This document shows, in pieces, positions 316 to 10,268 of a DNA stretch of 10,268 nucleotides. How positions within the stretch are numbered: position 1 is the stretch's first letter; each line of letters opens with the position of its first letter. Source of the DNA: Candidatus Thorarchaeota archaeon (GTDB lineage: Archaea > Asgardarchaeota > Thorarchaeia > Thorarchaeales > Thorarchaeaceae); the NCBI GenBank assembly GCA_048882385.1, contig JBHLRQ010000111.1:1-10268 (forward strand), read 5' to 3'. The notes under the pieces were generated by a model, which ran no database searches, was not told the origin of the DNA, and saw nothing but the letters and a program-made list of their open reading frames with translations. The translations under genes and the position numbers were made by a program.

Positions 316-349
316 TGATATATCACATGTGATATAATCGTGATATAAA
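316..349. promoter_or_regulatory. Palindromic operator TATATCACATGTGATATA (319-336) with extra TGATATA half-sites, next to a minus-strand TATA-like box
   Basis: Perfect 18-bp inverted repeat at 319-336. TGATATA occurs at 316-322, 330-336 and 341-347. Minus-strand TTTATA at 344-349 would place the transcription start near 320. The site lies in the divergent intergenic region between the regulator and the 438 gene. Confidence 0.7.
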
Positions 350-437: not shown

Positions 438-689
438 ATGTCAAAAGAAAAGTTCGTGAGAAGCAAACCACATGTGAATATCGGACTATTCATTGTGGTG
501 TTGGCAATCTTTGCTATGTTGACATACTATCTACCACAACAAATACCTCCAGGGAGTATTGCATTCCCTGTCGAGAGTGCACTCCGTCCAGAGTTTGGTG
601 TTCTAGTGACTCAGAGTCTACTGAATGGAGTTTTCTATGGTGTTGTAGGAGTAATCGGCTTCCAAGCAATCTCGCGTGCAAGGAATTGA
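438..689 (+). CDS. Small membrane protein (83 aa, 2 predicted TM segments) with an EF-Tu-like N-terminal peptide
   Basis: ATG at 438 (alternative GTG at 435), stop TGA ending at 689. N-terminus MSKEKFVRSKPHVNIG, then hydrophobic LFIVVLAIFAMLTYYL and FGVLVTQSLLNGVFYGVVGVIGFQAI. No GTPase P-loop, so it is not EF-Tu itself. Confidence 0.75.
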   Translation: MSKEKFVRSKPHVNIGLFIVVLAIFAMLTYYLPQQIPPGSIAFPVESALRPEFGVLVTQSLLNGVFYGVVGVIGFQAISRARN

Positions 690-768
690 CAGTATAATTC
701 TGAGGGGGCTAGTTAATAGGCACTCAAAATCATTCACATCGAAGATGATTACAAACGGGGATGACAAT

Positions 769-1767
769 TTGAAATATCGAAATGTTGGAAAGAGTGGACT
801 GAAAGTGAGTGAGATCTCACTGGGTTCTTGGCTGACTTATGGTGGAACTGTTGAGAATGAAATAGCCAAGAAGTGCATGGCTACAGCGCTCGACAATGGT
901 ATTAATTTCATTGACTCAGCAGAAATCTATGCAGGAGGTAAGGCGGAGGAGGTCATAGCACAGTTTCTACGGGATGAAAATGTCAGTAGAAGGAATCTCG
1001 TCATCTCGAGTAAGGTATTCTGGCCTACGAGTGAAGACATCACAGACTGGGGGAATAGTAGAAAGAATGTCATGAATGCAATCGAGGGCACTTTAGAACG
1101 ACTCGACCTAGACTACATCGACATCTACTTCCTGCATAGGTATGACTACACGACACCTGTAAAGGAAACTGTCATGGCTATGGATGATCTCATCAGAGAA
1201 GGGAAAGTGCGCTACTGGGGGACCTCGGCTTGGACAGCTGCACAACTAGAACGAGCAAATGCTGTCGCAAAGGAGTTGGGAGCTCACAGGCCTATAGTAG
1301 AGCAACCACTCTACAATATGTTTTCTAGGTTCATAGAACTTGAGATAATGTCTGTGGCCAAGACTCATGGAATGGGTCTAACGGTCTTTAGCCCTCTTGC
1401 ACAAGGACTGCTTACTGGGAAATACAATGACGGAGTGCCTCAGGGAAGTCGAGGAGCAACGTCCTCGATAATGAACAGATACCTCATTGAGGAAAACCTT
1501 ACCAAAGTCAGAAAACTTGGTGAGATAGCATCATCATTGGACATCACCACGGGGCAATTGTCACTAGCATGGGTACTCAGACGTCCAGAGGTTTCAGCCG
1601 CACTAGTTGGTGCAACCAAACCTGAACATGTCCTTGAGAATGTTCAGGCTTCAGATGTTTATCTCTCAAAAGACATTATCGAGCAAATCGATGGAGTATT
1701 GGACAATGTTCCAGAATGGCCAGCACCATATAGACCCAACATCTATCACAAAGACAAGATGAAGTGA
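769..1767 (+). CDS. Aldo/keto reductase, Kv-beta (AKR6)-like / YajO-type, NADPH-dependent
   Basis: Canonical N-terminus MKYRNVGKSGLKVSEISLGSW from TTG at 769, preceded by GGGGATG. Catalytic tetrad D (IDSAEIY), Y, K (ISSK) and H (FLHRYD) is present, as is the NADPH-binding SPLAQGLLTGKY motif. The track's start at 676 adds a non-homologous extension overlapping the upstream gene. Confidence 0.93.
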   Translation: MKYRNVGKSGLKVSEISLGSWLTYGGTVENEIAKKCMATALDNGINFIDSAEIYAGGKAEEVIAQFLRDENVSRRNLVISSKVFWPTSEDITDWGNSRKNVMNAIEGTLERLDLDYIDIYFLHRYDYTTPVKETVMAMDDLIREGKVRYWGTSAWTAAQLERANAVAKELGAHRPIVEQPLYNMFSRFIELEIMSVAKTHGMGLTVFSPLAQGLLTGKYNDGVPQGSRGATSSIMNRYLIEENLTKVRKLGEIASSLDITTGQLSLAWVLRRPEVSAALVGATKPEHVLENVQASDVYLSKDIIEQIDGVLDNVPEWPAPYRPNIYHKDKMK

Positions 1768-4409: not shown

Positions 4410-5003
4410 ATGAGTTTCTGGTTCCTAATCTCTGTAATAGGCATAATTGCTGTCGTTCCAATACACTTTGTATCAGTTGAACATGACAGGCTGGATAGCA
4501 GATTTGGAGTAGAAAAGGGCTACAAGGTCGGAGCGGCTCTTGGGATGATCTCAGGATGGGGGTTCTTCCTTTTTCTCTTTGGACTTTGGATTTCTCCTCA
4601 GGAGCGCTTCTCACTTGATTTCTCAGGAATCAATCTCCTTGGTGTGCCGATATTTCATCTGCTTTTGGCGTTTGGTCTTCTTCTCCCAGGAGCATATTTG
4701 GGAATTAAAGGAGTGACAGAGATGGGGCTAAAGACTGCAGAAACACATAGAGCTGAGAGTGTGATTTCATCAGGAGTCTACGCCAGAGTGAGGCATCCTC
4801 AATATCTGGGGGCATTTCTATCTCATATAGGTGCAACATTCCTTCTTTCAGGATACTACTCCCTTCTTGTTTCACCCGTTGTATTGATTGTCAACTACAT
4901 CCTATGTTGGAAAGAAGAACGAGAACTAATCAGAGAGTTCGGGCAGGAGTATCAGAGTTATCGAGAGAGTGTTCCGATGTTGATTCCCAAGATTGGAGCA
5001 TAG
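4410..5003 (+). CDS. Isoprenylcysteine carboxyl methyltransferase / PEMT (STE14-like) family membrane methyltransferase
   Basis: Multiple TM helices plus hallmark C-terminal motifs SSGVYARVRHPQYLG and KEERELIREFGQEYQSYRESVPMLIPK. Confidence 0.88.
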   Translation: MSFWFLISVIGIIAVVPIHFVSVEHDRLDSRFGVEKGYKVGAALGMISGWGFFLFLFGLWISPQERFSLDFSGINLLGVPIFHLLLAFGLLLPGAYLGIKGVTEMGLKTAETHRAESVISSGVYARVRHPQYLGAFLSHIGATFLLSGYYSLLVSPVVLIVNYILCWKEERELIREFGQEYQSYRESVPMLIPKIGA

Positions 5004-5187
5004 GTTGGCTTAATGAAATTCGGTTATTTTAGAGAGTTATTCAGTGTTCCATTCAATTAATCGAATGCAGGCCAAACAAGGAACAATAATAACCTAATAA
5101 AATGAGTCTACTGAGTTGAGTGGGCTACCCATATCTGCAGACTAAGAATCTGGGTAATCAACAATCTTGAGGCTTGAGGTAACCAAG

Positions 5188-8100
5188 ATGCGTAGCAAGC
5201 AATATTCAATCATAGCTCTACTTGTATGTCTATTATTTATGGGGCTACTGACATCTTTTGACTCTAGTATTGTTCATGAGATCACGGATGACAAAGATGA
5301 AGGCCCATTGTATCAGAATATTAACGAGGTCAACAAGAGAGGCTTCACTATTTCGCAGACTACGCAGGAGGGGTTAATCAATCCAGTCCAAATTAAAGAG
5401 AGTGCTTTCCGAACAACAGATGCTGCGAAGGCTCGGACTGATACTGGCGCAAACACAGGTCAGAACATCACAATTGATGAGGGCAATAATTGGTTTGCCA
5501 ACTATACAAGTATAGAAGTTTCGAGTATCAAGCAGCTTTACGGAGTCAATGGTACATTCGAAGATGGAGTAGATCCATGGACGAATTATACGATAAGTTA
5601 TGGATCGAACACACAGATACCTGGTTATGACTCGAGCGGGGAGTATATCACATGTAGGAATGTAGGGGATTACAGAAAAATTGGACCCAACCATGTTTGG
5701 GACCATGATGCAGGTTCAGAGGTCGGATTTGAGCAGGCTGTGTATAATACAGGGGGAGAACAGGTTTTTGATTTGAGGTTTGATTTTCGTTATGCTACTG
5801 GACCTATTGATCCAGAAGGAGATAATGCCTTGCCAGGAGTGGTGGGTGTATTCTATCAAATCAATGATGAAGGGGGGTCGTTATATGAGGGGTATTATTA
5901 TCCAATGGATGCGTATGTTGATTCGAGAGATGCATGGTTATCAATAGAGGATTCTTTCACAATTCCTTCACCATGGAGTGAGTTTTCCTTCGCTGTAGGT
6001 TTGTATCTTGCGGGAGGTATTACTATAAACAATGCCACAGATTACGATGACGACCCACTTGGAGAGCCTGATGGCACAGTAAATGCTGAAAATCTAACTG
6101 TCTATATCGACAACGTTGAGTTTACTGGTAGGACAACACCTACTTTTGATAGTGTAGACCTTACCTTTCACGCGGGTGTTTTTTCAGAAGCAGTCACAGG
6201 GAGTGGAGTGGGTACCGCATCGATTTCAAATCCTAGTTTCTGGACTGTTGATCCTCTAGAGGTCCAAATCACATCGAATACAAGTGTAATCTTTACCTAT
6301 TCGATTACCTCACTATTTCATCGTTACATTAATTCATCTTGGACAACAGATCTAAGCAAGGCTGGAGTCACATATTCAATTACCTCAGGACTGAGTTCAG
6401 ACCTGACCTTCTATACCTACATCACCGAGCCAGGGGGATATTATAATGCAACATTTGACATCGTCCATCCTCAAGATTGGGAGAACACGACGGTTTGGGA
6501 TCCTCTGGCCAACGATATCACGAGTTCATGTTCCATATCTCTCGGACAGATTCATATACCAACAAGTGAACTGAGTCGAAGTGGATGGTGGGAGATCAAC
6601 CTCAACAGTCTAAACTATGCTAAGAACATCTCTGTCCAAGTATATGATCAGAGCACCACTGATTGGTCGGAGAATTCGCTGTTCCGACCTGGTAACGTAA
6701 CTCGTGTCCAGGCAGAGATAGGAACTCCCAGCGTGACTCCTATAGGAGGAGATCCTGTGAATGTAACATGGATTAAACCCAATGAAGATCAGTGGGCAAT
6801 GGACTCAATCACTACTATGGTTGGAGGCGCTGTTACCAGCTCTTTATGGTCATTTGGGAATACAAACACTTCTGCTGGTGAGTGGTCTCTTGAAGTCTTA
6901 TGGACCAATGGAACTGAGATTGCCTTTGGATTGGTGACATTCGACCTCTACCACACAGCATCAATAGTTGCTACTTATCCAAACATCGAAACAGACTATG
7001 GTCTGATAATCTCAAATCTGATCACTTACAAAGATGCAGATACAAACGAGTACCTCTTAGACGACAGTGTCACCATCGAGGCTAACTGGTCAAGCACAGT
7101 TGTTTCATTTACGCAAAATTATGCGAAGAACTGGTGGGAGGCTGACTTTGACACCTTATTGCTTGGAGGGGGACAGTTTGTTGTTGTAGTTACTGCATCA
7201 AGACCGTATTTTGACTCAGTGTCCACAGAATTTACTGTAATATCATACTACGAATCAGCTCTACAAATAGTAAACACACCGTCACCGATTGAGAGGGGGC
7301 TCAATGAAGTCTTCACTGCGCAAATCGACTATGAGTTTCTCAATGGCACAGGCATTTCTGGAGCTCTGCCAATCATCACATTCTCAGGGCCAGTAGGAGG
7401 ACTCTCATGGAACTCATTTGTGGACAACAACAATGGTCACTATTCAGTGAACATTGTTTGTGATATTGCAGCAACCTACGAGGTCACAATCACTCTGTCA
7501 AAACCATACCATTACAATGCCTCAGACTCTTTTGTGCTAATAATTAGTGAAACTGGTACTGAACTGGAATCACTGAATGGCACCGCGGATGTTGTCAGTT
7601 TTGGAGATAGCTACAGACTTGTTGTTGAGTATAGAAACAGCACTGGACAAGGTCTGTCTGGAGCAGATTTGGAGATTGTATCAATCACTCCTTCGACAGG
7701 GTTGATCAATGGAAGCTTCAGTCCAATAACGGGAGGCCTCTATGAAATCACTCTGACACCTACAGCAACTGGCACTTACTCGATAGTAATTCGCGCGAGT
7801 CTCTTCAATCATGAAACTCAGTATATCACATTCACTCTTACAGGGGTGGTCATCCCCACAATTCTGACTTCCATGCCATCGAGTGCAACTGTCGCGGTGA
7901 ATGAGAGTTTCATCCTACAACTGCTGTTCCAAGATGAGGACCTTAGCCCAGTAGACGTGGCTAACATCACTGTTCTCAGTCCACCGAGTGGAATTACGAT
8001 TTCGGATGCAACATGGGTTGGAGGTGGTCTGTACAACATATCGATGCAGTCGTCAAGCATTGATGTATACAATCTACTCTTCAGAGCCTCTGCAGATAAC

Positions 8101-10268
8101 CATCAAAGCTCAATTGTCGGATTCACGCTTTCAGTGACAGCTTTGCAAACAATGTTGGAAATTCTGAATGCAGGGTCTATTCCAGTCGAAAATGGTCTTA
8201 ATGAGTTCTTCACAGTCCAATTGAGTTATCAACTTCTTAATGGTAGTGGAGTTGCAGGGGCATCACTGGGAGTTATTTTCACAGGACCTTCAGAGGGTCT
8301 TTCATGGACTAACTTCGTTGACAACAGTAATGGATTGTACTCGTTTGATATCACCTGCAATGTTTCAGCCATATATGGAATTACAGTCACACTGTCCAAA
8401 ATACATCACTACAACACCACAGATGCCTTCACACTTATTATCGGAGAAACAGGGAGTGAACTTCAGCTTCTGAATGGAACAGTAGACGTCGTCCTGTTTG
8501 GTGACAATTACACTCTGTTTGTTGAATACAGAAACAGCACTGGTTCAGGTCTGGTAGGCGCTAATTTGCAGGTTGTGACAATAACACCTTCAGTTGGAAT
8601 GACCCATGGCGGCTTTTCACCCCTTTATGATGGGTTTTATCAAATCACGCTTACTCCCACAGCTGCTGGAGCATTTTCAATTGTCATCAGTGCAAGTATC
8701 ATAAATCATGAAACCCAATATGCGACATTCACGCTATCAGCAACAGGCATTCCCACAATTCTGACATCATTGCCCTCAAGTGCAAGTATTGCATTGGACC
8801 AGAACTTCACTGTACAGCTAAGTTTCCAAGATGAGGGATATAATCCGATTGATGTAGCCAACTTCACCATAACCAATCCACCAAGCGATCTGATAATTTC
8901 AAATGTGACTGCAATAGGAGGCGGGCTGTATAACTTCACATTGACTCCTCTAACAACAGGCACTTTCAACGTACTCTTCAGGAGCTCAGCTGAAAACTAT
9001 CAGAGCTCGAGTGCAGCGTTTACTCTCATAGTAACTATGATAGAAACACGAATTGAGTTTGAGGGTGAAGTGTCTTCAGCTCTCGTTGAGTTTGAAGAAC
9101 CTTACCTACTTACTGTCTACTACTATCGGGATGACATAGCATTGCCAGTCAATATTGAAGGAGCTAATGTTTCAGTAATAACACAAGACCCTGGACTCAT
9201 CATCACAGTTGAGGGATTTTCAGGATATTATCTGATCACGATTAGAGGTCAAGCAATTGGTTCTTGGTCACTAACAATCACGGCAAACAAGACAGATCAC
9301 TTTACTTCGACCAAGCAATTCCTATTTCAAGTAGAGGAGATTGACACATCAATAGAAGGTTCAAGTCCATTGGAGGCACTCCTAATCGATAGACACTACC
9401 AATTCGTCTTCAGCTATATGTTCGAAACAAACAGTAGCAATATCTTCGGTGCTTCAATGACACCATTTGGTGAGGGAGCTGATTGGGTAACATATGTAGA
9501 ACTTGGTAATGGTCAATATGCAGTAAATCTGACTCCATTAGCACTGGGCGAGTATAGTGTATTATTGACCTTTGAGAAGACAGGATTTGAAACGGTCAGC
9601 TACAGACTGAGTTTCACAGTCAATGAGATACCAATCACGGTTGAAGTGCTGCAAGGACTTCAAGGCCCAGAAGGATTTCCAACAACAATACTTGTGCGTG
9701 TCGTTGAGAGTGACACAAGAGATCCTGTTGTTGGAGCTACTGTATTCTTCGACATTCGCAAATCAGATGGTACACCCGTTGGTACACGAACATCAATGAA
9801 CCCGACAACTACTCCAGGAGTCTATATGGCAACAGCAGAGATGCCTCCAGCAGATGGTGCTTATTACATCGAAATTTCATGCGAAGCAACTAATTTCATC
9901 CTTGTTCAATCTTTGTCAATGCCATTTCAACCTGCAAGAGACCTAACAACAATGCTGTATATTTCATTCCAGCAATACTTCCTCATTTACTTAGGAGCTG
10001 GAGCCTTGGCTGTTGGACTAGCTTACCGGAGAAGCGCTAGAAAGCGTAGAATACGCCAAAACAAGATCACATTAGCCATTAAGAGACGCTTTGATGATGT
10101 AAGAAGCCTTCTAGGAGTGATTGTCATCCACAAAGACAGTGGATTACCAGTTTATTCCAAGATATTGAGAGATGGCCTTGAAGAAGCAGTCATCTCAGCA
10201 TTCATCACAGCTGTCACAAGTTTCAGAGGTGAATTCGATATTGAATCAACAACAGAGGAGTGGGGATT
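5188..10268 (+). CDS. Giant single-pass cell-surface glycoprotein (at least 1693 aa, 3' end outside window): signal peptide, Ig-like/beta-sandwich repeat ectodomain, TM helix, cytoplasmic longin/roadblock-like domain
   Basis: Continuous frame +1 with no stop from ATG 5188 (GAGGT upstream) to the window end. Starts MRSKQYSIIALLVCLLFMGLLTSF (signal peptide). The ectodomain is Thr/Ser/Gly-rich with more than 30 N-x-S/T sequons. TM YFLIYLGAGALAVGLAY at 9976-10026 is followed by basic RRSARKRRIRQNK, then LLGVIVIHKDSGLPVYSKILRDGLEEAVISAFITAVTSF. Confidence 0.92.
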   Translation, partial: MRSKQYSIIALLVCLLFMGLLTSFDSSIVHEITDDKDEGPLYQNINEVNKRGFTISQTTQEGLINPVQIKESAFRTTDAAKARTDTGANTGQNITIDEGNNWFANYTSIEVSSIKQLYGVNGTFEDGVDPWTNYTISYGSNTQIPGYDSSGEYITCRNVGDYRKIGPNHVWDHDAGSEVGFEQAVYNTGGEQVFDLRFDFRYATGPIDPEGDNALPGVVGVFYQINDEGGSLYEGYYYPMDAYVDSRDAWLSIEDSFTIPSPWSEFSFAVGLYLAGGITINNATDYDDDPLGEPDGTVNAENLTVYIDNVEFTGRTTPTFDSVDLTFHAGVFSEAVTGSGVGTASISNPSFWTVDPLEVQITSNTSVIFTYSITSLFHRYINSSWTTDLSKAGVTYSITSGLSSDLTFYTYITEPGGYYNATFDIVHPQDWENTTVWDPLANDITSSCSISLGQIHIPTSELSRSGWWEINLNSLNYAKNISVQVYDQSTTDWSENSLFRPGNVTRVQAEIGTPSVTPIGGDPVNVTWIKPNEDQWAMDSITTMVGGAVTSSLWSFGNTNTSAGEWSLEVLWTNGTEIAFGLVTFDLYHTASIVATYPNIETDYGLIISNLITYKDADTNEYLLDDSVTIEANWSSTVVSFTQNYAKNWWEADFDTLLLGGGQFVVVVTASRPYFDSVSTEFTVISYYESALQIVNTPSPIERGLNEVFTAQIDYEFLNGTGISGALPIITFSGPVGGLSWNSFVDNNNGHYSVNIVCDIAATYEVTITLSKPYHYNASDSFVLIISETGTELESLNGTADVVSFGDSYRLVVEYRNSTGQGLSGADLEIVSITPSTGLINGSFSPITGGLYEITLTPTATGTYSIVIRASLFNHETQYITFTLTGVVIPTILTSMPSSATVAVNESFILQLLFQDEDLSPVDVANITVLSPPSGITISDATWVGGGLYNISMQSSSIDVYNLLFRASADNHQSSIVGFTLSVTALQTMLEILNAGSIPVENGLNEFFTVQLSYQLLNGSGVAGASLGVIFTGPSEGLSWTNFVDNSNGLYSFDITCNVSAIYGITVTLSKIHHYNTTDAFTLIIGETGSELQLLNGTVDVVLFGDNYTLFVEYRNSTGSGLVGANLQVVTITPSVGMTHGGFSPLYDGFYQITLTPTAAGAFSIVISASIINHETQYATFTLSATGIPTILTSLPSSASIALDQNFTVQLSFQDEGYNPIDVANFTITNPPSDLIISNVTAIGGGLYNFTLTPLTTGTFNVLFRSSAENYQSSSAAFTLIVTMIETRIEFEGEVSSALVEFEEPYLLTVYYYRDDIALPVNIEGANVSVITQDPGLIITVEGFSGYYLITIRGQAIGSWSLTITANKTDHFTSTKQFLFQVEEIDTSIEGSSPLEALLIDRHYQFVFSYMFETNSSNIFGASMTPFGEGADWVTYVELGNGQYAVNLTPLALGEYSVLLTFEKTGFETVSYRLSFTVNEIPITVEVLQGLQGPEGFPTTILVRVVESDTRDPVVGATVFFDIRKSDGTPVGTRTSMNPTTTPGVYMATAEMPPADGAYYIEISCEATNFILVQSLSMPFQPARDLTTMLYISFQQYFLIYLGAGALAVGLAYRRSARKRRIRQNKITLAIKRRFDDVRSLLGVIVIHKDSGLPVYSKILRDGLEEAVISAFITAVTSFRGEFDIESTTEEWG
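7252..9045 (+). repeat. Intragenic tandem duplication, period 897 bp (299 aa, three modules per unit), two diverged copies
   Basis: Matching motifs recur at exactly +897: E-x-GLNE 7291/8188, YRNSTG 7630/8527, NHETQY 7807/8704, FQDE 7927/8824, GGGLYN 8020/8917 and FTL 8122/9019. Confidence 0.92.

Follow-up and report, generated by a model that had tools for sequence, protein, structure and literature searches.

The DNA studied here (below, the window) is a whole contig of 10,268 nt (C111) from a 3.7-Mb metagenome-assembled genome of a Candidatus Thorarchaeota archaeon with an estimated contamination of 4.9%. A coding sequence at positions 438–689 of its plus strand (ATG at 438, stop codon TGA at 687–689) encodes an 83-residue membrane protein with two helices, which has 13 homologues in a large protein database and five in congeneric genomes. 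The 83-codon frame begins with the peptide MSKEKFVRSKPHVNIG (residues M1–G16, positions 438–485, plus strand), which is of the EF-Tu type by comparison with PDB sequences, NCBIfam models and an EF-Tu fragment. The sequence after G16 is hydrophobic. The automatic list of open reading frames opens the frame one codon earlier (GTG 435); the homologues conserve the position of ATG 438.

Transmembrane helix 1 (residues 15–31, positions 480–530) is present in the AF2 model and gives 19-residue Kyte-Doolittle windows of up to 2.26. The short, predicted external loop that follows (residues 32–52, positions 531–593) carries the residues P33, P38, S47, L49 and R50, invariant in the family alignment A1, and leads to transmembrane helix 2 (residues 53–82, positions 594–683; N63, G64 and Y67 conserved in A1), all on the plus strand. 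The AF2 model built on A1 has a mean pLDDT of 84.8 and consists of helices 15–31, 39–42 and 53–82. The first 10 residues have a mean pLDDT of 56, consistent with a flexible arm. The net charge is +3 for the N-terminal tail, –1 for the loop stretch 36–58 and +2 for the C-terminal tail, and both ends of the hairpin are predicted to be cytoplasmic. The motif stands at the start codon directly before helix 1. The features of a cleavable Sec-type signal peptide (a short n-region, an h-region of 7–15 residues and a small-x-small cleavage site) are not seen: the helix has at least 17 residues and, as judged by eye, no A-x-A-type site follows it.

The C-terminus of the window protein is shortened. The stop codon TGA is premature, and the nine in-frame codons after it, up to TAA at 714–716 (the whole segment being 687–716, plus strand), are, by orthologue comparison, a diverged remnant of the ancestral C-tail. 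The window frame reads ...SRARN(stop)QYNSEGAS(stop), alike in frame and length to ...TRVRILKHSPEWTN(stop) of the orthologue in genome G020; the proteins P0002–P0005 end with IPKHNPEWTN, and the window has its TGA where such orthologues read on to ...RIPKHNPEWTN. P0001, 99% identical to the window protein, shares the short form. The basic C-tail, which is KGKKILQN or of the R-I-P-K-H type in the family, has been reduced to SRARN with the ancestral tail still recognisable downstream; the C-tail is dispensable in this lineage, in which the leader is intact. Reading of TGA 687–689 as selenocysteine was considered and judged unlikely: a SelB-like gene is present, but the downstream remnant has diverged.

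A Pfam search with the 438–689 frame gave no family and no GTPase domain, and PADLOC models at E ≤ 0.1 matched neither this protein nor the large, bacterial and paralogous proteins described below. The family has no NCBIfam assignment either, in line with the sequence-only reading, by which it may be undescribed. In a protein atlas no feature match reached 0.9 and the structure matches were generic helical hairpins. The frame is a genuine gene, and its product is a small membrane hairpin belonging to an Asgard-specific family. It resembles the small regulatory hairpin membrane proteins of prokaryotes in its size (less than 100 residues), two helices, patchy accessory distribution and conserved polar helix residues (N63, and an R in most members). 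Unlike in those proteins, conservation in the Asgard family is highest in the cytoplasmic arm rather than in the helices, and the Asgard hairpin is not known to have a partner membrane protein.

The divergent intergenic region upstream of the gene contains a perfect 18-bp palindrome (319–336) and a direct repeat GTGATATAA (329–337 and 340–348); the segment 319–348 is a likely, putative operator. An aldo/keto reductase gene lies downstream (745–1767, plus strand; Pfam PF00248, E 3e-73). Of 13 extended loci, 4 have an aldo/keto reductase within 8 kb; the gene is syntenic among close relatives only and is not a family-wide partner. No conserved neighbour was found in 18 loci with 1.5-kb flanks and 13 loci with flanks of about 8 kb. 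In the window a membrane methyltransferase of the PEMT/ICMT family is encoded 3.7 kb downstream of the gene, and G020 has one at a similar distance. A PEMT-family paralogue directly adjoins the locus of genome G378; this paralogue and the enzyme of the window share 30% identity over 84 residues. The other 10 extended loci have no PEMT/ICMT-family gene within 8 kb. This neighbour was considered as an enzyme modifying the leader and set aside in view of the 11 PEMT-family copies in the window's genome and the low identity at G378. Neighbours, Pfam and defence models pointed to no reader or partner of the arm.

Relation of the N-terminal peptide to bacterial EF-Tu

The phmmer search of PDB sequences with the small protein gave 29 matches at E ≤ 10, of which 28 were EF-Tu chains. 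In the three printed alignments residues 1–17 or 1–18 of the query lie on residues 1–17 or 1–18 of EF-Tu, and in the remaining rows residues 1–17 or 2–17 lie on the EF-Tu start, offset in tagged or EF-Ts-fused chains. The identity to E. coli-type EF-Tu is 13 of 16 residues, which confirms the count given in the sequence-only reading. The only NCBIfam models matching the small protein are four EF-Tu models (E 0.027–0.13), with scores of 11–13 bits against cut-offs of 449–522. They cover positions 1–17 only, in agreement with the earlier statement that the similarity ends before the P-loop. The bacterial-type arm K-E-K-F-x-R-x-K-P-H-V-N is present in the frame 438–689, and the G1 P-loop and the GTP_EFTU domain are absent. 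An EF-Tu fragment in the large protein collection (P0014) is identical to the window peptide in 16 of 16 residues and then continues as GTIGHVDHGKTT.

In the large Asgard proteins that carry the same leader, the identity to EF-Tu often extends through G-T-I (residues 16–18) and then reaches 18 of 18 residues, start position included; the EF-Tu NCBIfam models align with their residues 1–24 (E 6.5e-5). The residues G-T-I are the start of the EF-Tu strand β1, and the residues of this strand begin the transmembrane helix in the small Asgard protein. The likeness is to the EF-Tu N-terminal arm (the elf18 region): residues 1–16, and up to 18 in the large relatives, are identical to natural EF-Tu N-termini, and in both cases the arm opens the protein, following a Met that can be removed and beginning with Ser or Ala as residue 2. 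Unlike EF-Tu, the small Asgard protein lacks the P-loop, the G domain and domains 2 and 3.

A scan of species-representative genomes with tuf genes not excluded gave at least 119 stretches, and all 80 loci examined were bacterial tuf. The string MSKEKFVRNKPHVNIG is the exact N-terminus of bacterial tuf in at least nine loci and MSKEKFVRDKPHVNIG in at least one. A tuf gene starting with MSKEKFVRNKPHVNIGTI occurs in at least nine loci, with the titles Kofleriaceae, Polyangia, Myxococcales and Omnitrophica, and one starting with MSKEKFVRDKPHVNIGTI in one Nannocystaceae record among the matches listed. The two commonest leader variants of Asgards thus occur as exact N-termini of bacterial tuf.

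The host, unlike the bacteria that bear EF-Tu, is an archaeon with a factor of the EF-1alpha type. The genome's own elongation factor (...KEHLNLVVIGHVDHGKST) is archaeal and has no F-x-R-x-K insert, whereas the peptide has it, which bears out the earlier assignment of the peptide to the bacterial EF-Tu type. The GTP_EFTU matches in the genome are aEF1A, EF-2 types, a SelB-like protein, aIF2-gamma, HflX and a GTPBP1-like protein. A split GTPase, in which the arm and strand β1 complement a truncated EF-Tu, was rejected because none of these is a bacterial-type or N-truncated EF-Tu.

Conservation and selection in the small family

A protein search of 61 related genomes gave the five congeneric homologues, which align from residue 1 (E 2.5e-29 to 1.2e-10). 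The 13 homologues from the large database have 83–95 residues, and the close ones are named 'Candidatus Thorarchaeota archaeon'. In the alignment A1 (18 sequences) S2, K3, E4, K5, F6, R8, K10, P11, V13, I15 and G16 are invariant, while the overall identity of the distant members to the window protein falls to 44–50%. Many leader loci were found by a pattern that itself fixes K3, E4, K5, F6, R8, K10, P11, V13 and N14, so that invariance is partly circular there; the fair test is given by the sets found by homology, and even in these the leader adds to the match score.

In six small genes found by homology, codons 2–16 of the leader have pS 0.81, pN 0.047 and pN/pS 0.058, as compared to pS 0.74, pN 0.379 and pN/pS 0.51 for the rest of the same genes. 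By this test, which the sequence-only reading had called for, the motif is under strong purifying selection, and 10 large genes show a similar pattern of leader versus rest. Saturation of synonymous sites is seen in the leader as well as in the remainder, and every degenerate position is occupied by several synonymous codons. Since the synonymous codons vary freely and the amino acids do not, the constraint acts on the peptide and not on DNA or RNA.

Carriers of the peptide in Asgard archaea and bacteria

The back-translated motif pattern was found in 17 of 400 Asgard genomes, one place in each, and its reversed control in none of the 400. With up to two mismatches the same genomes gave 17 further places versus 13 control places. 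Among the four mismatch places translated (L055, L056, L060 and L062) only L060 and L062 have the leader, and the mismatch scan adds two genuine carriers (genomes G015 and G315). In total 19 of 400 genomes are carriers with one gene each, in assemblies labelled Thor-, Heimdall- and Lokiarchaeota; the distribution is patchy and the gene is therefore accessory. In the source genome a six-frame scan, also with a looser motif, gave the window's gene as the sole match. The motif of G013 has the substitution H12T, and an upstream ATG would add 11 residues there. The codon preceding Ser/Ala-2 is a canonical start in 36 of 41 Asgard-type loci (ATG 30, TTG 5, GTG 1) and near-cognate in the other five (ATT 2, ATC 1, ACG 2). 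Both loci with ACG lack a canonical start further upstream, and GAGGAG stands eight nucleotides before the ACG.

In the window's own family (f1) the protein with the leader is the small hairpin. In families f9, f23 and f30 the same leader and helix head proteins of 359–460 residues; proteins of these types are labelled by their sources as hypothetical proteins of Heimdallarchaeota and Lokiarchaeota. Taken together, the leader-headed large Asgard proteins have 337–460 residues and a beta-rich ectodomain. A phmmer search with one 399-residue large protein against 1.84 billion representatives gave 76 matches. Seven of them have the leader, including P0022 and P0029 at only 27–28% overall identity, five are fragments without the N-terminus, and the other 64 are remote relatives of the ectodomain (20–31% identity) with ordinary signal peptides of the MKK...-hydrophobic kind. 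The leader therefore belongs to one branch of a wider family. P0029 (337 residues) combines the leader with the C-terminus KGKKILQN found in most small proteins, and its shared ends link the small form to the large one by loss or gain of the ectodomain.

The model of the large protein consists of a helix, a beta-sandwich and a second helix, with the ectodomain of about 300 residues between the two helices (pLDDT 69 overall and 80–93 in the ectodomain). The cleavable signal peptides of the remote relatives put the ectodomain outside and therefore the leader of the large protein inside. The best fold match of the ectodomain in the PDB is 6nyq_C, the luminal domain of GLMP (E 4.4e-10, TM 0.45 normalised by query and 0.54 by target). 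Both are membrane-anchored, glycoprotein-like beta-sandwich domains. They share 9% sequence identity, and the beta-supersandwich is also found in many N-domains of glycosidases. The small protein of the window has no GLMP-like domain at all.

The window's genome encodes also a paralogue of the hairpin core (C12:22994–23248, minus strand), which has the N-terminus MPLNRPALDSRGYREI instead of the leader and matches the leader-type proteins over the helices and the loop (E 1.8e-9 to 1.7e-4). Thus hairpin and leader are separable modules. By the sequence-only reading, loss or neutral decay of the motif in orthologues of the transmembrane part would speak against it; this is partly the case, in that a paralogous hairpin branch lacks the motif, but within the motif-bearing branch it has not decayed. 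A region-restricted search for longer proteins was uninformative on fusions: of 51 candidates one matched (E 9.4), the EF-Tu fragment P0014.

Metagenome contigs were searched with a pattern in which His at codon 20 is excluded and position 7 is Val; for other residues at position 7, the search for non-GTPase carriers covered the Asgard genomes and a sample of one bacterial phylum. The 36 loci obtained comprise 14 large and 8 small Asgard-type genes, 2 cut after at most 22 residues, 3 frameshifted tuf genes and 9 frames on contigs of high GC content (0.56–0.69). In each of these nine a signal peptide with a small-x-small site (judged by eye; ends such as ...EARA, ...GARA, ...SAFA and ...DAVA) is followed at once by A/S/G-KEKFVRxKPHVN, and the sequence downstream of the motif is unrelated and apparently beta-rich. 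Four of these frames form a homologous group, and searching the database with one member yielded 22 proteins. In the alignment A3 (18 bacterial sequences) the only invariant columns are K-E-K-F, R and K-P-H-V-N, and the remainder falls to 37% identity. The motif stands about 25 residues inside the bacterial precursor, after the signal peptide; if the predicted cleavage is right, the mature bacterial N-terminus would copy that of EF-Tu after removal of Met. Searching with A3 for this signal-peptide family in five genomes with exactly matching tuf gave tuf matches only, the pattern used for the metagenome contigs had no match in 121 genomes of the phylum of genome G400, and viral contigs contained no motif match. 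The leader is thus found on at least two Asgard architectures and several bacterial ones, which agrees with the earlier suggestion of a reused leader. The occurrence of the same peptide on several unrelated non-GTPase proteins of Asgards and bacteria suggests a portable module.

Origin and possible role of the peptide

Capture of the 5' end of a bacterial tuf gene is a plausible origin of the leader and the simplest one: the sequences are identical, begin at the same start position and share the insert of bacterial type. About 50–60 nt, start codon included, would have been captured. In the predicted topology some 13 residues (SKEKFVRSKPHV) make up a basic, flexible arm that is anchored on the cytoplasmic side of the membrane, since the former β1 residues (VNIG...) begin transmembrane helix 1. 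The arm is a portable module, kept nearly unchanged on different scaffolds and always at the predicted mature N-terminus. There it would imitate the free arm at the start of EF-Tu, and some factor would bind or modify it, with the hairpin or ectodomain protein as its membrane-anchored carrier. In every carrier the leader is the part under the strongest selection. A flexible arm, the strongest selection, a mature N-terminus and unrelated carriers are properties of linear motifs, and we therefore infer, at roughly even chances, that the captured tuf 5' end has been kept as a short linear recognition peptide at the membrane. These 13–18 residues are under selection about eight times stronger than the rest, in archaeal as well as bacterial proteins that are not GTPases, which argues for a function of the peptide itself that is detachable from the GTPase. 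The arrangement recalls the NHLP/Nif11-type RiPP leaders, which are leader peptides borrowed from another protein family: in both cases a segment derived from a housekeeping protein or enzyme is reused as an N-terminal module on varied cargo. Unlike RiPP precursors, the Asgard 'cargo' is a membrane hairpin or ectodomain protein with no cleavage site after the leader, and no maturation or transporter genes were found near the Asgard loci (18 and 13 loci examined).

The main rival of the recognition reading is a topogenic or translational role, in which A-rich first codons and basic residues would aid translation initiation or early elongation and fix the N-in orientation with no trans-acting reader. 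The net charge of +3 directly before helix 1 fits the positive-inside rule, the motif is placed exactly at the start codon in the 36 canonical loci mentioned above, and tuf is a very highly expressed gene. This explanation is weakened by the free variation of synonymous codons at fixed amino acids, which places the constraint on the peptide and not on mRNA. Moreover, a generic basic n-region needs no 11 invariant residues, the remote relatives manage with MKK-type signal peptides, and a motif lying deep inside the bacterial precursors cannot act on initiation; on balance we consider it unlikely. It is also conceivable that the arm is a substrate, modified at the membrane surface by an N-terminal acetyltransferase or lysine methyltransferase and functional in the modified form. 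Lysines 3, 5 and 10 do not vary and residue 2 is almost always Ser or Ala, EF-Tu itself is acetylated at its N-terminus and methylated at Lys5, and the PEMT/ICMT-family enzyme downstream, with its counterparts in G020 and at G378, could be taken for the modifier. Against it stand the multiplicity of this enzyme family in the genome, the distant relationship of the G378 neighbour and the 10 extended loci without such a gene; besides, modification dependent on acetyl-CoA or SAM is not expected outside the cell, the predicted site of the bacterial proteins. The substrate role thus appears improbable.

Convergence, by which the Asgard peptide would have reached the EF-Tu sequence independently of tuf, might be considered since the peptide is short and its K-P-H-x-N part is shared with archaeal EF-1alpha-type factors (KEHLNL in the genome's own). 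It is made quite improbable by the complete identity to natural EF-Tu N-termini (16 of 16, and 18 of 18 in the large proteins, at the same start position), by the F-x-R-x-K insert and the G-T-I continuation, which are bacterial and not archaeal, and by the several independent scaffolds that keep 13 to 19 residues of one segment, as would be expected if a single template had been captured repeatedly. Archaeal pilins and archaellins likewise have a short basic N-terminus that ends with Gly before a hydrophobic helix, here of about 20 residues, so that one may think of a class III signal peptide, cleaved after G16 by prepilin peptidase to release the helix into a filament. The rule for this class is a charged residue at –2, Gly or Ala at –1 and a single N-terminal helix. 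Here positions –2 and –3 are the uncharged Ile and Asn, with Ile-Gly at –2/–1, and every member has, besides the first helix, another transmembrane helix and a basic C-tail, which unlike in pilins is cytoplasmic; the large ones carry an ectodomain of about 300 residues between the helices. No pilus assembly genes are among the conserved neighbours, and a leader to be discarded would need no invariance of residues 2–14, which makes a class III peptide very improbable. Finally, an assembly chimera or a non-coding frame comes to mind, as the window is itself a complete short contig and its metagenome-assembled genome has an estimated contamination of 4.9%. A 929-nt contig record of run X1 covers positions 270–1198 with zero differences, although X1 may be the source sample itself; the portions examined of runs X2, X3 and X5 contained no contig across 438–689. 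Stronger evidence for continuity of the junction comes from the many independent loci. The same junction recurs in dozens of these, which answers the earlier concern about a chimeric junction, and the gene has the codon-level signature of a coding sequence; the likelihood of an artefact is negligible.

The predicted location of the arm is cytoplasmic in Asgards and periplasmic or extracellular in bacteria, and one shared reader is hard to picture; there may be several readers, or a property intrinsic to the peptide. A wider proposal, which we put forward tentatively and consider doubtful, is that the free arm of EF-Tu serves generally as a portable peptide for recognition by a reader or readers still to be discovered, and has been copied repeatedly onto unrelated carriers. 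In this view the Asgard membrane carriers would display the arm, obtained from bacteria, at the cytoplasmic face, and the exported bacterial carriers would display it after removal of the signal peptide. The Asgard carriers, with conserved short cytoplasmic tails at both ends and the GLMP-like ectodomain of the large members, could then be cargo-receptor-like or adaptor-like proteins read from the cytosol.

Literature matches for the MSKEKF string and for elf18 with archaea were only plant-immunity papers or unrelated titles among those listed, and the titles and abstract starts listed for Asgard signal peptides contained nothing relevant. On this limited literature basis, the Asgard family and the reuse of the EF-Tu arm appear to be undescribed. 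The work defines an unannotated family of Asgard membrane proteins, the conserved parts of which are cytoplasmic tails, and, as far as the proposed origin holds, points to a transfer from bacteria to Asgards in which only part of a gene was passed on. The EF-Tu N-terminal arm is among the most conserved bacterial peptides, for which reason it serves as a plant immune pattern, and its role within EF-Tu is poorly defined. A tiny membrane protein carrying this short peptide offers a concrete handle on the binders or modifiers of the arm. A general recognition peptide, if true, would explain the conservation of the disordered arm of EF-Tu in bacteria.

Flanks and neighbours of the leader gene

Upstream of the leader ORF (438-689, forward strand), the divergent intergenic region harbors an 18-bp perfect palindrome, TATATCACATGTGATATA, overlapping a direct repeat of GTGATATAA (window 319-348); this element is probably a regulator binding site. 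The C-tail of the encoded hairpin protein is shortened by a premature TGA, 3' of which the ancestral frame, with a C-tail remnant and the stop, is still recognisable (window 687-716). Reading of this TGA as selenocysteine was considered since a SelB-like factor is encoded on contig C4 of the same genome; it was not supported and is unlikely.

In three Thor-family loci a PEMT/ICMT-family membrane methyltransferase is found near the leader gene (window 4410-5003, forward strand; L241, 3269-3895; L242, 8066-8737), and in genome G378 it directly adjoins it. The link between the two genes is weak because this methyltransferase family has 11 members in the window's genome and its representative in G378 is only a distant paralogue. 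The open-ended ORF at 5167-10266 (forward strand, >1,700 aa) contains long internal tandem modules and a late transmembrane segment. At its cytoplasmic end it is similar to the N-terminal portion of a 417-aa protein encoded beside the leader gene in another Asgard genome (G015, locus L016), and a homologue of the ORF is present in the locus of the window orthologue (G020, L241).

Bacterial carriers of the EF-Tu motif

In high-GC bacterial ORFs from metagenome contigs (L191, L194, L199, L214, L215, L217, L218, L221 and L223; proteins P0116-P0137) the EF-Tu N-terminal motif comes immediately after a predicted Sec-type signal peptide, and the sequence beyond it is unrelated. Neither Pfam nor PADLOC gave a match for these ORFs. 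In one family among them, of ~165 aa, this motif is the sole invariant block. Frameshifted tuf genes can mimic "non-GTPase" carriers during pattern scans: L196, L197 and L206, found in public metagenome contigs, are bacterial tuf genes whose reading frame shifts around codons 18-20, in each case probably through an assembly indel.

Start codons

At several loci the conserved start position is occupied by a near-cognate codon, namely ACG in L213 and L219 and ATT/ATC in L046, L047 and L202. Together with the lack of a canonical start upstream of both ACG codons and the presence of GAGGAG 8 nt 5' of them, this suggests that non-AUG initiation may occur in some Asgard lineages.

Large Asgard proteins and the hairpin paralogue

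The large leader-bearing Asgard proteins (L033-L042 and L060, alignment A2) carry a D-x-D-G-D motif behind TM1 and an ectodomain predicted to fold as a GLMP-like beta-sandwich. Their H-E-x-G-H-x-L-x-x-S-H stretch looks like a metzincin signature, with Pfam support only at E 0.2-0.5. TM2 is followed by one to three copies of the tail motif R-K-K-P-G-R-V-K-Y-x-x-[IL].

The window's genome also encodes a paralogous hairpin protein of 85 aa (C12, 22994-23248, reverse strand; L003/L182), represented also by L183-L186, whose conserved N-terminus, MPLNRPALDSRGYREI, differs from the leader. Its C-tail, SERLRHKGR, is similar to the RIPSTLRHRNR end of the large proteins. The cytoplasmic tails of this hairpin/large-protein family look like interchangeable short motifs.
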